Shown: positions 2,673 to 7,545 of the stretch, piece after piece | Layout: each line of letters begins with the position of its first letter | Position numbering within the stretch: the first letter of the stretch is position 1 | Virus record (IMG/VR): IMGVR_UViG_2778261385_000001 | Strand: one strand, 5' to 3' | DNA: 25,458 nt | From: a virus | Taxonomy: Duplodnaviria > Heunggongvirae > Uroviricota > Caudoviricetes | Translations under genes and position numbers: made by a program | Notes under the pieces: model-generated | What the model was told of the DNA's origin: nothing | Seen by the model: the letters and a program-made list of their open reading frames with translations, nothing else | Databases searched by the model: none

Positions 2673-3314
2673 TCAGCGACCAATCACCACAACCTGACCA
2701 CCATCACCTTCATCTGCTGTGCTGATCTCCTGAGATACCACACGTGATCCCACGCGCATTTCACCGTACAGAACGGGCAGAACATTGCCCTGGGCAACCA
2801 TATTATCCAGTGAAGAAAAATAGGTGTTCTGTTTGCCGTTATCCGTTGTCTGTGTGCGGGGGGTTCTGGGTTTAGGGGCCAGCATCTGTGCAACACCGCC
2901 AAGCGTCATACTGGCACCGAGAGAAAACAGCAGATTACTCGCCATAATTCCTACCCCCGGCATCCATATAGCAACCGCCATAACAGCCGCCCCCAGCACA
3001 GCCTGAAACACACCGCCACTTTTGGCTCCTGCCAGACGCGGCACGATATGGATCACAGCACCATTTGCCAGCGGTTCATTAAGACGGGCTGATAATTCCG
3101 TTTCACCTGTATCACGCCCGGCAATCCGTACCTGATACCAGCCGTCGCTCAGTTTCTGACGAAACGCCGGGAGCTGTGTGGCCAGCGCCCGGATGGCTTC
3201 AGCCCCCGTTTTCACACGAAGGTCGATGCGGCGGCCAAATCGTTGTAAATCCCCGTAAAGGCAGATGCGCGCCATGCCCGGTGACGCCAGAGGGAGTGTG
3301 TGCGTCGCTGCCAT
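2673..3314 (-). CDS. I: Tail tip assembly protein I
   Basis: 213-aa ORF (MAATHTLPLASPGMARICLYGDLQRFGRR...VVVIGR) matching lambda gpI at both ends; overlaps the 3' end of K by ~100 nt as in lambda. Confidence 0.9.
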   Translation of the reverse strand: MAATHTLPLASPGMARICLYGDLQRFGRRIDLRVKTGAEAIRALATQLPAFRQKLSDGWYQVRIAGRDTGETELSARLNEPLANGAVIHIVPRLAGAKSGGVFQAVLGAAVMAVAIWMPGVGIMASNLLFSLGASMTLGGVAQMLAPKPRTPRTQTTDNGKQNTYFSSLDNMVAQGNVLPVLYGEMRVGSRVVSQEISTADEGDGGQVVVIGR

Positions 3315-3955
3315 TTGTCGGTATACCTCTCTCGTTTGCTCAGTTGTTCAGGAATATGGTGCAGCAGCTCGCCATCACCACAGTAAATGGCGGCATGATT
3401 CGGCACCGATGAACCAAAACAGCACAGCAGCACATCGCCCGGTTGTGCTGATGACAACGGCACCTGATACAGCCCTGTGGCCTCCAGATTATCCAGATAG
3501 AGATTCTGACCGTGACGCCACCAGTCATCCCCGCGATGAAAATCCGGCATCTCAATCCCCGCCAGATGATAAGCATCCCGGAACAGCGTGTAACAGTCCG
3601 TCACCCCGTGCTCAAAGCACCGCCCGGTAAGATGCGGCACACAGCGGAATTTATGAATCTCACCCCGGCAGACCAGCCACCACGGCAAATCGCTCTGCAC
3701 CTGCAGCCGCCTGTCAGCCTCACTCAGCCAGGGCAGACCACCGGGGTGGCTGTGGACCAGCGCCACAATCTCACCCTGCATCTCTGCCCGCAGCCAGTCC
3801 TCCGGCGACATCCGGAAATACGCCTCCGGCTCACCGGAGATATTCACGCAGGGAAAATATCTTTCCCCCTTCGGCGTTCTCACCACGAAGCCACACGACT
3901 CCGCTGGCGCACATCGCCGGGCGTGCGCCAGAATCGCTGATTCTGTCTGTGTCAT
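3212..3955 (-). CDS. K: Tail tip assembly protein K (MPN/JAMM plus NlpC/P60-like domains); alternative shorter start at 3811
   Basis: ORF matches lambda gpK; JAMM signature HSHPGGLPWLSEAD (H-x-H-x7-S-x2-D) and upstream ESCGFVV glutamate. Start taken at ATG 3955 (MTQTESAIL), 4 nt after the L stop; the internal ATG at 3811 (MSPEDW) has a GGAGG upstream. Confidence 0.85.
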   Translation of the reverse strand: MTQTESAILAHARRCAPAESCGFVVRTPKGERYFPCVNISGEPEAYFRMSPEDWLRAEMQGEIVALVHSHPGGLPWLSEADRRLQVQSDLPWWLVCRGEIHKFRCVPHLTGRCFEHGVTDCYTLFRDAYHLAGIEMPDFHRGDDWWRHGQNLYLDNLEATGLYQVPLSSAQPGDVLLCCFGSSVPNHAAIYCGDGELLHHIPEQLSKRERYTDKWQRRTHSLWRHRAWRASAFTGIYNDLAAASTFV

Positions 3956-3959
3956 GGGA

Positions 3960-4658
3960 TTACTGCGAAAGTTTGTTAATGGAAAGGAAGCCGCCAAAGT
4001 TGCCGACGTTATTGCGGAACTTACAACCGCTCAGGCATTTGCTGCATTTATCCTTCGTGATATCGGACGTTGGCTGGTCATATTCATCCGCGACAGCCGG
4101 ACCGCTATAACCGCACTCGTCACCGCGATAGGTCCAGGTGCAGGTGTTGGCCAGCATGATACGTCCCGGAAAAACAGCGCCATCCGTTTCCGTCGGCGTG
4201 GACAGTACAAAGGAGGCACTCACCGCGCTCAGTTCGCTGCACTGCTCAATGCGCCAGCGGCTGATCACCTCCTGCTCCGGATCGGCATAACTGTTTCCGT
4301 TGACGAAGTTCACCGCATCCAGAAAACGGGCGTAAACCTTACGCCGGACCACCGTTCCGCCGACCAGACTCTGCAGATCTTCCGCCATCCCGGTGACCAT
4401 ACCGTACAGGTTAGAAACCGTCAGCGTGGGGCGCGTACTGGTGCCTTTGCCATTCAGTTCAAAACCGCTCCCCTGAATGGGATACGGCTGATACTGTCGC
4501 CCCTGCCAGGTGACCGGCTCACCTTTTTCGTTCTGCTCATTACAGAAAAAATAACGTTCTCCACCGACCTCTGTCAGGTCGATTTCCCAGAGCACCACGC
4601 TGGCCGACTGCTCCGCACGGGTGCATTCATTCAGTGTTTCCTGCCGGATATCCTGCAT
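3960..4658 (-). CDS. L: Tail tip protein L
   Basis: 232-aa ORF (MQDIRQETLNECTRAEQSASVVLWEIDL...) recognisable as lambda gpL; start overlaps the M stop. Confidence 0.95.
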   Translation of the reverse strand: MQDIRQETLNECTRAEQSASVVLWEIDLTEVGGERYFFCNEQNEKGEPVTWQGRQYQPYPIQGSGFELNGKGTSTRPTLTVSNLYGMVTGMAEDLQSLVGGTVVRRKVYARFLDAVNFVNGNSYADPEQEVISRWRIEQCSELSAVSASFVLSTPTETDGAVFPGRIMLANTCTWTYRGDECGYSGPAVADEYDQPTSDITKDKCSKCLSGCKFRNNVGNFGGFLSINKLSQ

Positions 4659-4987
4659 CAGTTCACCACCTGTTCAAACTCTGCGCTGAACTCAACACGC
4701 AGCATACTGACCCGCGACGACCATTTTGCGCAGGTCACCTTTATCTGCTGCCACTCATAAGGCGGCGTCCACAGAAAGGATTTCCAGCCCCCGTGCTCTT
4801 CCAGAAACGACTCCAGTACCGTGGCCTCCTCACGGGGGACAGAAAGCGTCACGCTGTACGTTTTCAGGTTGGCATTCAGCCCGGCAGGCGCTCGCTGAGA
4901 ATAGCCATCACCAAAGCGCACCTTTCTTACAGAAGGGACCGAAGCCACATCCATACCGGGTTTCACTTTCCAGCGGAAGGTCTTCAT
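4658..4987 (-). CDS. M: Tail tip protein M
   Basis: 109-aa ORF (MKTFRWKVKPGMDVASVPSVRKVRFGDGY...) recognisable as lambda gpM; ATGA overlap with the H stop. Confidence 0.95.
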   Translation of the reverse strand: MKTFRWKVKPGMDVASVPSVRKVRFGDGYSQRAPAGLNANLKTYSVTLSVPREEATVLESFLEEHGGWKSFLWTPPYEWQQIKVTCAKWSSRVSMLRVEFSAEFEQVVN

Positions 4988-7545
4988 CGTCCACCTCCGG
5001 AGAACAGGCCACCATCACGCATCTGTGTCTGAATTTCATCACGGGCACCCTTGCGGGCCATGTCATACACCGCCTTCAGAGCAGCCGGACCTATCTGCCC
5101 GTTCGTGCCGTCGTTGTTAATCACCACATGGTTATTCTGCTCAAACGTCCCGGACGCCTGCGACCGGCTGTCTGCCATGCTGCCCGGTGTACCGACATAA
5201 CCGCCGGTGGCATAGCCGCGCATCAGCCGGTAAAGATTCCCCACGCCAATCCGGCTGGTTGCCTCCTTCGTGAAGACAAACTCACCACGGTGAACAATCC
5301 CCGCTGGCTCATATTTGCCGCCGGTTCCCGTAAATCCTCCGGTTGCAAAATGGAATTTCGCCGCAGCGGCCTGAATGGCTGTACCGCCTGACGCGGATGC
5401 GCCGCCACCAACAGCCCCGCCAATGGCGCTGCCGATACTCCCGACAATCCCCACCATTGCCTGCTTAAGCAGAATTTCTGTCATCATGGACAGCACGGAA
5501 CGGGTGAAGCTGCGCCAGTTCTGCTCACTGCCGGTCAGCATCGCCGCCATATTCTGTGCAATACCATCAAAGGTCTGCGTGGCTGCACTTTTTACCTGCG
5601 ACATACTGTCCGTGGCGCTCTCTTCCCACTCACTCCAGCCGGACTTCAGGCCTGCCATCCAGTTCCCGCGAAGCTGGTCTTCAGCCGCCCAGGTCTTTTT
5701 CTGCTCTGACATGACGTTATTCAGCGCCAGCGGATTATCGCCATACTGTTCCTTCAGGCGCTGTTCCGTGGCTTCCCGTTCTGCCTGCCGGTCAGTCAGC
5801 CCCCGGCTTTTCGCATCAATGGCGGCCCGTTTTGCCCGTTGCTGCTGTGCGAATTTATCCGCCTGCTGCGCCAGCGCGTTCAGGCGCTCCTGATACGTAA
5901 CCTTGTCGCCAAGTGCAGCCAGCTGGCGTTTGTACTCCAGCGTCTCATCTTTATGCGCCAGCAGGGATTTCTCCTGTACAGACAGCTGGCGACGTTGCGC
6001 CGCCTCCTCCAGTACCGCGAACTGACTCTCCGCCTTCCACAAATCCCGGCGCTGCTGGCTGATTTTCTCATTTGCTCCGGCATGCTTCTCCAGCGTCCGG
6101 AGTTCAGCCTGAAGCGTCAGCAGGGCAGCATGAGCACTGTCTTCCTGACGATCGCCCGCAGACACCTTCACGCCGGACTGCTTCGGCTTTTTCAGTGTCG
6201 TTTCATAGTCCTTTTTCGCTGCCGCCATCAGCGTGTTGTAATCTGCCTGCAGGATTTTTCCGTCTTTCAGGGCCTTATTCAGTTCTTCCTGACGGGCGGC
6301 ATATTTCTCCAGCGGCGTCTGCAGCCGTTCGTAAGCCTTCTGCGCCTCTTCGGTATATTTCAGCCGTGACGCTTCGGTATCGCTCTGCTGCTGCGCATTT
6401 TTGTCCTGTTGACTCTGCTGTTCAGCCTTCTTTCGGGCGGCTTCAAGCGCAAGACGGGCCTTTTCACGATCATCCCAGTAACGCGCCCGCGCTTCATCGT
6501 TAACAAAATAATCATCCTTGCGCAGATTCCAGATGTCGTCTGCTTTCTTAAACGCAGCCTCTGCCTTAATCAGCATCTCCTGCGCGGTATCAGGACGACC
6601 AATATCCAGCACCGCATCCCACATGGATTTGAATGCCCGCGCAGTCCTGTCTGCCCAGGTCTCCAGCGTGCCCATGTTCTCTTTCAGGCGGCGGGTCTGG
6701 TCATCAAACCCTTTCGTTGCGGCCTCGTTCGCCGCCTGCAATGCCCCGGCTTCATCGCCGGAACGCTGCAACTGAGCAACATACGCAATCTGCTCCGCCG
6801 TCACGTTATGGAACTGGCGTGCCATCGCCGTCAGCCCCGACGTCGGGTCTGTGGTCAGCTTCCCGAAGGCTTCAGCGACCTTGTCCACCTCCACGCCGGA
6901 TGCAGAGGAGAAACGCGCCACACTCTGGCTGATGGACGCAATCTGAGCCTCACCGCTTACCCCCGCCTTAACCAGTGCGCTGAGTGACTCGCTGGTCTGG
7001 TTAAACGTCAGCCCTGCCGCCTGCCCGGCTCTGGACAGGACCAGCATACGATCTGCCGTCAGACCCGCCTGATTGCCGGAAAGGACCAGCGTTTTGTTGA
7101 AATCGGACAGGGTTGAGTTGCCCTGATACCAGGCATACGCCAGCGCACCGGTCGCCACCGCCAGCGAGGTGGCCCCCACCATCGGCAGGGTGATCGCACC
7201 GGCAAGCCCCCTGAACATGGGGATCATCCCGCCGAAGGAGTCCTTCACCTGCCCCCCCTGTTGCAGCAGGATCAGCCACGGACTTTGCCCGCCTGCAAGC
7301 TGCGTGGCCACGTCGGTGAACTGTGCAGGCAGCATACGCATGGCGGCTTTATACTGCCCGACGGAAATCCCCGCTTTCTGTGCAGCCAGCGCCTGTCGGC
7401 TCAGCGACTGTTCAACGACTGCCGCTGTTTTTTTCGCATCACTTTCCGTACCGGAAAAATGACGCCTGACTCTGGCCATCTGCTCGTCAAATCTGGCCGC
7501 ATCCAGACTCAAATCAACGACCAGATCGCCTACCGGTTCAGCCAT
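4984..7545 (-). CDS. H: Tail tape measure protein H
   Basis: 853-aa ORF (MAEPVGDLVVDLSLDAARFDEQMARVRRHF...), same length as lambda gpH; coiled-coil-rich centre, Gly-rich C-terminal region. Confidence 0.95.
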   Translation of the reverse strand: MAEPVGDLVVDLSLDAARFDEQMARVRRHFSGTESDAKKTAAVVEQSLSRQALAAQKAGISVGQYKAAMRMLPAQFTDVATQLAGGQSPWLILLQQGGQVKDSFGGMIPMFRGLAGAITLPMVGATSLAVATGALAYAWYQGNSTLSDFNKTLVLSGNQAGLTADRMLVLSRAGQAAGLTFNQTSESLSALVKAGVSGEAQIASISQSVARFSSASGVEVDKVAEAFGKLTTDPTSGLTAMARQFHNVTAEQIAYVAQLQRSGDEAGALQAANEAATKGFDDQTRRLKENMGTLETWADRTARAFKSMWDAVLDIGRPDTAQEMLIKAEAAFKKADDIWNLRKDDYFVNDEARARYWDDREKARLALEAARKKAEQQSQQDKNAQQQSDTEASRLKYTEEAQKAYERLQTPLEKYAARQEELNKALKDGKILQADYNTLMAAAKKDYETTLKKPKQSGVKVSAGDRQEDSAHAALLTLQAELRTLEKHAGANEKISQQRRDLWKAESQFAVLEEAAQRRQLSVQEKSLLAHKDETLEYKRQLAALGDKVTYQERLNALAQQADKFAQQQRAKRAAIDAKSRGLTDRQAEREATEQRLKEQYGDNPLALNNVMSEQKKTWAAEDQLRGNWMAGLKSGWSEWEESATDSMSQVKSAATQTFDGIAQNMAAMLTGSEQNWRSFTRSVLSMMTEILLKQAMVGIVGSIGSAIGGAVGGGASASGGTAIQAAAAKFHFATGGFTGTGGKYEPAGIVHRGEFVFTKEATSRIGVGNLYRLMRGYATGGYVGTPGSMADSRSQASGTFEQNNHVVINNDGTNGQIGPAALKAVYDMARKGARDEIQTQMRDGGLFSGGGR

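Follow-up and report, generated by a model that had tools for sequence, protein, structure and literature searches.

Tail Operon Containing Gene K

The stretch of DNA considered here, a window of 25,458 nucleotides, includes a lambda/phage-21-type prophage tail operon in its first 8 kb, on the minus strand. The genes of this tail-tip assembly operon, that of an E. coli lambda/phage-21-type prophage, appear in the order H-M-L-K-I-J, with all six being oriented on the minus strand. Gene H is found at positions 4984-7545, gene M at 4658-4987, gene L at 3960-4658 (337 bits to PF05100), gene K at 3212-3955 and gene I at 2673-3314 (213 aa; 86.7 bits to PF06805, a ubiquitin-like family), while gene J extends from 2612 downward. 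The full-length product of K, the tail tip assembly protein, comprises 247 aa and combines a JAB/JAMM domain with an NlpC/P60 domain. Being flanked by L (PF05100) and I (PF06805) and lying upstream of J, K occupies the neighborhood that characterizes lambda gpK and TAPK. K moreover matches PHROG 30 and PHROG 2635, both of which are tail families. The DNA surrounding the gene is 96-99.9% identical to that of many lambdoid phages, including Perceval, 21, 434, cdtI and mEp460.

Examination of the junction between L and K (3956-3962, minus strand), a presumed site of translational coupling, revealed the L stop codon (TAA, 3962-3960) to be followed by a 4-nt spacer (3959-3956, tccc on the minus strand) and then by an ATG (3955-3953). 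As originally predicted, the K frame is open from this ATG, and remains so down to a TGA at 3214-3212, yielding the 247-aa product. A second in-frame ATG (3811-3809), also noted in that prediction, corresponds to codon 49, i.e., 48 codons downstream of the long start, and is the start of the 199-aa short K annotated in the lambda reference and by some gene callers. The disputed segment thus consists of the 48 N-terminal codons at 3812-3955. At the other end of the gene, codons 214-247 of K overlap the start of I in a different frame (3212-3314, minus strand). The K frame is open still further upstream, to a TTG at 3997 within L. Use of this TTG, which would yield the longest ORF, was considered and rejected, as it lies inside L, and as homologues begin at M1 and use none of the additional stretch.

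The Disputed N-Terminus Completes the JAB/JAMM Domain

To determine which start gives a complete domain, K was compared with the Prok-JAB (MPN+/JAMM) and NlpC/P60 profiles. With the 247-aa protein, PF14464 aligned to residues 3-105 (3641-3949, minus strand), covering profile positions 3-113 of 114 with a score of 52.9 bits, relative to a Pfam cut-off of 25. When K was instead begun at 3811, only profile positions 63-113 were matched and the score fell to 23.8 bits, below the cut-off. The match is accordingly not confined to the portion of K past residue 63, and the argument from domain completeness that had been put forward in favor of the long form is borne out. The NlpC/P60 (C40) papain-like peptidase domain, assigned to residues 114-224 (3284-3616, minus strand; PF00877, 46.7 bits, cut-off 23), is kept with either start.

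The full JAMM motif, E-x(n)-H-S/T-H-x7-S-x2-D, is present in K as E19, H68-S69-H70, S78 and D81. The zinc-ligand part of the motif (H68, H70, S78, D81) falls within HSHPGGLPWLSEAD, corresponding to residues 68-81 (3713-3754, minus strand), and begins 19 residues after Met49, in agreement with the earlier estimate of about 20. The general-base glutamate, Glu19, is encoded by a GAG at 3899-3901 (minus strand) and is part of ESCGFVV (residues 19-25), which lies upstream of Met49, as had been claimed. Across an alignment of 97 sequences (described below), the motif is retained nearly throughout (E19 in 96, H68 in 97, S69 in 91, H70 in 97, S78 in 90 and D81 in 97), and each member of the NlpC/P60 triad, namely C121, H187 and H199, is retained in 96 of the 97.

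An AlphaFold2 model of the 247-aa protein, generated using the same alignment, was predicted with a mean pLDDT of 97.1 and a pTM of 0.91. Residues 1-50 were modeled at a pLDDT of 97-98 and contribute to the MPN fold a helix (residues 3-15) and two strands (residues 21-27 and 30-36), with E19 being positioned just before the first strand. When the N-terminal half of this predicted model was compared with the PDB using Foldseek, PfJAMM1, AMSH, CSN5, Rpn11 and 2kks were matched with a probability of 1.00; the C-terminal half matched MepS, Spr, LytE and other NlpC/P60 enzymes. At the sequence level, 2kks is the sole PDB relative of the N-terminal half of K, aligning with residues 7-109 and sharing an 'E.CG' element, the glutamate of which is aligned with E19. 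According to an earlier report, the JAMM glutamate activates the zinc-bound water (PMC300881). Because residues 1-48 contain the catalytic glutamate along with helix 1 and the first two strands of the core, a protein started at Met49 would, given the established mechanism of the family, be unable to form an active JAMM site. These findings support the main reading of the original prediction, namely that K starts at the long start.

Conservation and Selection Across the First 48 Codons

An open run of 48 codons is, in itself, weak evidence for translation, given an estimated probability of about 10% at random. It is because of the domain match, together with conservation and codon statistics, that the open frame seen here is far beyond chance. 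An exhaustive HMMER search with K returned 2775 relatives at E ≤ 0.001, 273 of these at E ≤ 1e-30, and a family alignment was assembled from the window K and 96 full-length representatives sharing 31-58% identity with it. Within residues 1-48, G22 and N38 are found in all 97 sequences, E19 in 96, F47 in 95, C21 in 92 and P17 in 88; further along, H68, H70 and D81 are invariant. The N-termini of 78 of the 96 homologues fall 0-3 residues from M1 of the window protein. At position 49, by comparison, Ile occurs in 63 of the 97 sequences, Met in 13, Leu in 13 and Val in 6. Across the aligned sequences, therefore, the long N-terminus appears as a feature of the family, whereas the internal Met49 does not.

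Closer relatives were considered at the DNA level using 92 loci containing K, 80 of which came from IMG/VR and the remainder from several phage records and from metagenome contigs. An ATG and an intact 247-codon frame were found at the long start in 88 of these, the four exceptions being the lambda reference, two loci with nonsense mutations and one spurious motif match. Calculated in the K frame from 75 distinct sequences, pN/pS was 0.21 for codons 1-48, 0.15 for codons 49-105 and 0.07 for codons 106-213. The value of 0.21 indicates that codons 1-48 are translated in the K frame and are under purifying selection.

Initiation Signals at the Two Candidate Starts

The original prediction had also assigned the better Shine-Dalgarno sequence to the short start, and here too the sequence is in agreement. 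A GGAGG motif (3823-3827, minus strand) in codons P43-E44-A45 precedes the internal ATG at 3811 with a spacer of 10-11 nt and forms a duplex of -9.5 kcal/mol with the 3' end of 16S rRNA. At the long start (ATG 3955), no Shine-Dalgarno sequence was found, the best anti-Shine-Dalgarno duplex being +0.7 kcal/mol; the corresponding duplexes of H, M, L and I all fall between -7 and -11 kcal/mol. In nearly all of 89 close relatives, L stop and K are likewise separated by a spacer of 4-5 nt that offers no Shine-Dalgarno sequence. Since ATG 3955 is without such a sequence and the L stop lies 4 nt upstream, K is most likely translated from ATG 3955 by termination-reinitiation coupled to L. Such coupling would suit an enzyme that is no part of the tail structure and is required only at low levels, gpK being absent from virions (PMC10721106).

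The strength of the GGAGG motif explains why some gene callers choose the short start, and raises the possibility that both products are made, that is, the coupled 247-aa enzyme and a 199-aa isoform initiated at Met49 via GGAGG. Such an isoform would contain a working NlpC/P60 domain and a dead JAB remnant, and could serve a separate or regulatory role. Nested gene pairs are found elsewhere in lambda, as exemplified by C/Nu3 and S105/S107. In addition to the stability and placement of the duplex, initiation at Met49 would be in line with the retention of GGAGG and of ATG49, each in 87 of the 89 close relatives, with E44 always being encoded by GAG while E52 varies between GAG and GAA, and with the Met49 start having been repeatedly taken by gene callers and hand annotators alike despite the open long frame. 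However, 82 of the 97 divergent homologues have Ile, Leu or Val at position 49, such that an internal start is no feature of the family. Moreover, GGAGG falls within codons for conserved residues, so that coding constraint can account for the motif, and about 5% of all ATGs on the minus strand are preceded by a match of similar strength (duplex ≤ -8 kcal/mol), with K containing several in-frame ATGs. Finally, a spacer of 11 nt is above the optimal length, and half of an MPN domain would probably be unfolded. Synthesis of both forms is thus considered unlikely. The same degree of doubt applies to a fuller version of this proposal, in which members of the lambda clade would produce little of the full enzyme from the coupled ATG, which has no Shine-Dalgarno sequence, and more of a 199-aa isoform offering NlpC/P60 only from the strong internal Shine-Dalgarno sequence at Met49, with the ratio between the two timing gpI processing.

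A Base Missing From the Lambda Reference Probably Accounts for the Short Form

In the lambda reference (J02459/NC_001416), K is annotated at 14276-14875 as a protein of 199 aa (AAA96551; UniProt TIPK_LAMBD/P03729). Upstream of this position, the reference nonetheless contains the 45 N-terminal codons (MTQTESAILAHARRCAPAESCGF...), beginning from an ATG at approximately 14133 and read in another frame. The two frames are separated by a single G that is absent from J02459, in which GGAGGC-TATTTCC appears in place of GGAGGCGTATTTCC, about 10 nt before the ATG at 14276. As such, the 199-aa protein exists in the reference annotation because Met49 is the first ATG after this one-base gap. The possibility that the two reference frames are joined by a programmed -1 frameshift was considered and rejected, as GCT ATT TCC does not constitute a slippery heptamer and as resequenced genomes contain the missing base.

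Among the matches listed, only J02459, NC_001416, an engineered strain labeled 'UNVERIFIED' and an 'isolate' from a cloacal swab bearing the reference coordinates, four phage records in all, match the 76-nt junction of the reference at 100% identity. Every other lambda or lambda-derived genome among those matches, including LC730321, PV340536, KT232076, DE3, lambda imm21, imm434, h434 imm21 and HK629/630, contains 77 nt across the junction. Translation of four of these (LC730321, PV340536, DE3 and lambda imm21) yielded an uninterrupted 247-aa K in each case. A search of 5426 complete E. coli genomes gave 7232 matching places, none of them with the gap form of the reference, and a scan of IMG/VR for the exact 25-mer of the lambda reference returned no match. 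It is therefore highly probable that the lambda K of 199 aa reflects truncation in the annotation, caused by a base missing from the 1982 sequence or at most by a variant specific to one stock.

LC730321 also differs from NC_001416 in being without a G at approximately position 138. Commercial lambda DNA, according to a supplier's note, reportedly differs from the GenBank sequence at precisely these two single bases, 138 and 14266, and the records are in agreement with both differences. Eight positions at which a laboratory strain differs from NC_001416 are mentioned, without being listed, in a preprint on the lambda mutation rate. A literature search returned no published statement that the reference lambda K is truncated.

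These observations also bear on whether only the 199-aa protein is functional, with the upstream 48 codons being untranslated or a decaying remnant. Such a reading could draw on the classical annotation, in place since 1982, on the better Shine-Dalgarno sequence and on the existence of 199-aa clusters whose members in databases run into the thousands. The short lambda annotation, however, depends on a one-base gap confined, among the matches listed, to J02459/NC_001416 and two further records, while codons 1-48 present purifying selection and invariant residues, and the short protein lacks the catalytic glutamate and scores below the JAB cut-off. A functional K of 199 aa alone is accordingly deemed extremely improbable. 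Instead, K is very probably translated from ATG 3955 to give a 247-aa assembly enzyme that is non-structural and contains two peptidase domains, the short K being a legacy of annotation.

Treatment of K in Databases

K is reported as a gene of 744 nt encoding 247 aa in RefSeq/PGAP annotation of E. coli (WP_000194779), in phage 21 and in lambda PV340536. In DE3 and in lambda imm21, the latter with an annotated RBS, K is annotated as 199 aa despite the open frame; KT232076 presents a 211-aa version, and metagenome gene calls give a 199-aa K on contigs with an intact long frame. The window's 247-aa K recurs, residue for residue, on at least 1000 contigs. Most annotations therefore already give the long form, and the gene belongs, as an ordinary and previously annotated representative, to a known family. 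RefSeq holds the 247-aa form, and the joining of a JAB domain to NlpC/P60 was described in 2006 (PMC1779556).

With the start of K already being correct in RefSeq, only a single start codon is fixed here. Still, gene callers are split between K proteins of 247, 211 and 199 aa, with the short versions silently dropping the catalytic glutamate of a deubiquitinase-like domain. Furthermore, the model-phage reference NC_001416 and UniProt P03729 carry a truncated K on account of one base; if this is true, then any experiment in which 'K' was cloned according to the reference coordinates relied on a protein without the catalytic glutamate. What is worth passing on is that the faulty annotations are those of K in the lambda reference and, as described below, of I in RefSeq.

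Comparison With Known Systems

The 247-aa K of lambda (LC730321, PV340536, EU078592 and OM418625) is 96% identical (238/247) to the window protein. Lambda and the window are alike in the L-K-I-J gene order, in the overlap between K and I and in the presence of both peptidase domains; they differ in the spacer between the L stop and K, which is 4 nt in the window and 5 nt in lambda. In the J02459/NC_001416 reference, codons 1-45 are out of frame and K begins from Met49, whereas the K frame of the window is intact. The TAPK family, consisting of tail assembly peptidases that combine JAB and NlpC/P60 domains and whose genes in lambdoid and T1-like phages lie beside that of the ubiquitin-like TAPI, was described by Iyer, Burroughs and Aravind in 2006 (PMC1779556). 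Domain architecture and gene neighborhood match those of the window K, with no essential difference; start codons and the truncated lambda reference protein are not discussed in that report.

The N-terminal half of K shares its fold and the E...HxH...S..D motif with minimal archaeal JAMM isopeptidases, such as AfJAMM and PfJAMM1 (5ld9; 5lda with SAMP2). In the Foldseek comparison, the K model aligned with PfJAMM1 (5ld9/5lda) at a TM score of 0.67-0.69, normalized to the target, and an rmsd of 2.5 Å over 107-109 columns. The archaeal enzymes act on a ubiquitin-like, β-grasp substrate ending in Gly-Gly, and the same would hold for K. Identity is limited to 22-24%, however, and K carries, in addition, a fused NlpC/P60 domain. 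Furthermore, the presumed substrate of K is gpI, a linear fusion of a ubiquitin-like domain and a structural protein, as opposed to the isopeptide conjugate processed by the archaeal JAMMs. In its C-terminal half, K has in common with E. coli MepS/Spr (PDB 2k1g, 8xup) and B. subtilis LytE the papain-like fold and a Cys-His-His triad. Unlike these proteins, K contains neither a signal peptide nor a cell-wall-binding domain.

Predicted Role of K in gpI Processing

In lambda, gpK is needed for tail assembly yet is absent from the virion (PMC10721106, PMC12617516). Because gpK is cytoplasmic and absent from virions (PMC10721106), a role for K in acting on peptidoglycan at infection is unlikely. 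On the basis of the assignments described above, K is predicted to contain a minimal JAMM/MPN+ zinc isopeptidase in residues 3-105 and a papain-like NlpC/P60 peptidase in residues 114-224. According to the prediction of Iyer et al., TAPK uses its JAB domain to free the N-terminal ubiquitin-like domain of TAPI, cleaving at the C-terminal glycine of that domain (PMC1779556). More recently, cleavage of gpI by gpK was, according to a meeting summary, presented as demonstrated by Davidson in a plenary talk of 2025 (PMC12908700). Consistent with such processing, gpI becomes visible in cryo-EM maps from residue 101 only (PMC11101478), and the window gpI reads ...IVPRLAGAKSGG(100-101)VFQ..., with the ubiquitin-like domain ending in ...AKSGG (G100-G101). 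The JAB domain of K would remove the N-terminal ubiquitin-like domain from gpI by cleaving after the Gly-Gly at about residues 100-101, an event proposed to follow placement of gpI in the tail tip. Such N-terminal cleavage of gpI is, by this analysis, the most likely task of the JAB domain. Were K to cleave gpI as presumed, a complete and active JAMM site would be expected, which argues for the long K.

Start of Gene I and Its Overlap With K

The gene that K overlaps presents the mirror-image problem, with the start at fault being that in RefSeq rather than that in the lambda reference. In the window, I can begin at ATG 3314 (M1), with a further Met, Met14, being found at 3275, and PF06805 covers residues 14-97 of the product. 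By contrast, RefSeq and several gene callers give a 190-aa I that begins at a GTG overlapping the K stop; the equivalent start in the window is at 3215 and would yield 180 aa. Because the GTG start cuts into the ubiquitin-like domain, of which the first 25 profile positions would be dropped, M1, as in the lambda reference, or M14 is a better start for I than is the GTG of RefSeq. Within the overlap, codons 14-34 of I show a pN/pS of 0.03 in the I frame, while the same DNA read in the K frame (codons 227-247 of K) gives 6.8. Further upstream, where codons 1-13 of I coincide with codons 214-226 of K, hardly any variation was seen in either frame.

Gene K of the lambda reference

In the window, the lambda-type tail assembly gene K (3212..3955, minus strand) is open for 247 aa from ATG 3955. 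Alignment revealed that a single G is absent from the lambda reference (J02459/NC_001416), which here reads GGAGGC-TATTTCC (L002:1260-1276, corresponding to about 14259-14275 of NC_001416 and to 3812-3830 of the window), breaking K into two frames. The same G is present in all other lambda resequencings among the matches listed and in all E. coli prophages. Upon translation of four of these resequenced lambdas (LC730321, PV340536, DE3 and lambda imm21), a K of 247 aa was obtained in each case. The canonical 199-aa K (UniProt TIPK_LAMBD) results from the splitting of the reference frame by the missing base.

Two natural copies of the K locus contain in-frame stops, namely, IMGVR_UViG_2537561603_000004, at codon 61 (CAG to TAG), and ERZ28660271 scaffold_37003, at codon 46 (TAT to TAG); both are probably decaying prophage copies. 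In the latter, the stop causes the gene caller to revert to Met49, encoded by the internal ATG at 3811 in the window. A third annotated start, probably the GTG of codon 37, is in circulation; it yields a K of 211 aa in KT232076.1 (13201-13836), and a 211-aa JGI cluster (P0040) also has this form.

Junctions with genes L and I

At the junction with the upstream gene L (window 3956-3962 and counterparts in 89 relatives), two forms are common, namely, TAA+ATCCC+ATG in 52 loci, lambda among them, where the spacer is 5 nt, and TAA+TCCC+ATG in 24 loci, among them the window, where it is 4 nt. Neither form contains a Shine-Dalgarno sequence.

At the other end of K, close relatives give a pN/pS of 6.8 for codons 227-247 (window 3212-3274, the final 21 codons), and divergent homologues are only about 6% identical here. 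The overlapping frame of gene I seems to dictate the sequence of this stretch, and despite such variability, residues 230-243 form a confident helix in the AlphaFold2 model.

For the start of gene I (window 3212-3314), RefSeq/PGAP and several gene callers choose a GTG overlapping the K stop (product 190 aa; in the window, GTG 3215, minus strand, 180 aa). This start omits 21 codons with a pN/pS of 0.03 in the I frame and deprives the ubiquitin-like domain (PF06805) of its first 25 positions. Most likely, the true start is either ATG 3314 (minus strand), preceded by a strong Shine-Dalgarno sequence (-9.3 kcal/mol), or Met14 (3275, minus strand).

A second discrepancy in the lambda reference

Besides the K site, NC_001416 and LC730321 differ by a second single base at position about 138, near cos and upstream of nu1, where the former reads GCGAGGC and the resequenced genome GCGAGC (L097/L096). 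Together, the two sites match single-base differences reportedly listed by a supplier of commercial lambda DNA.
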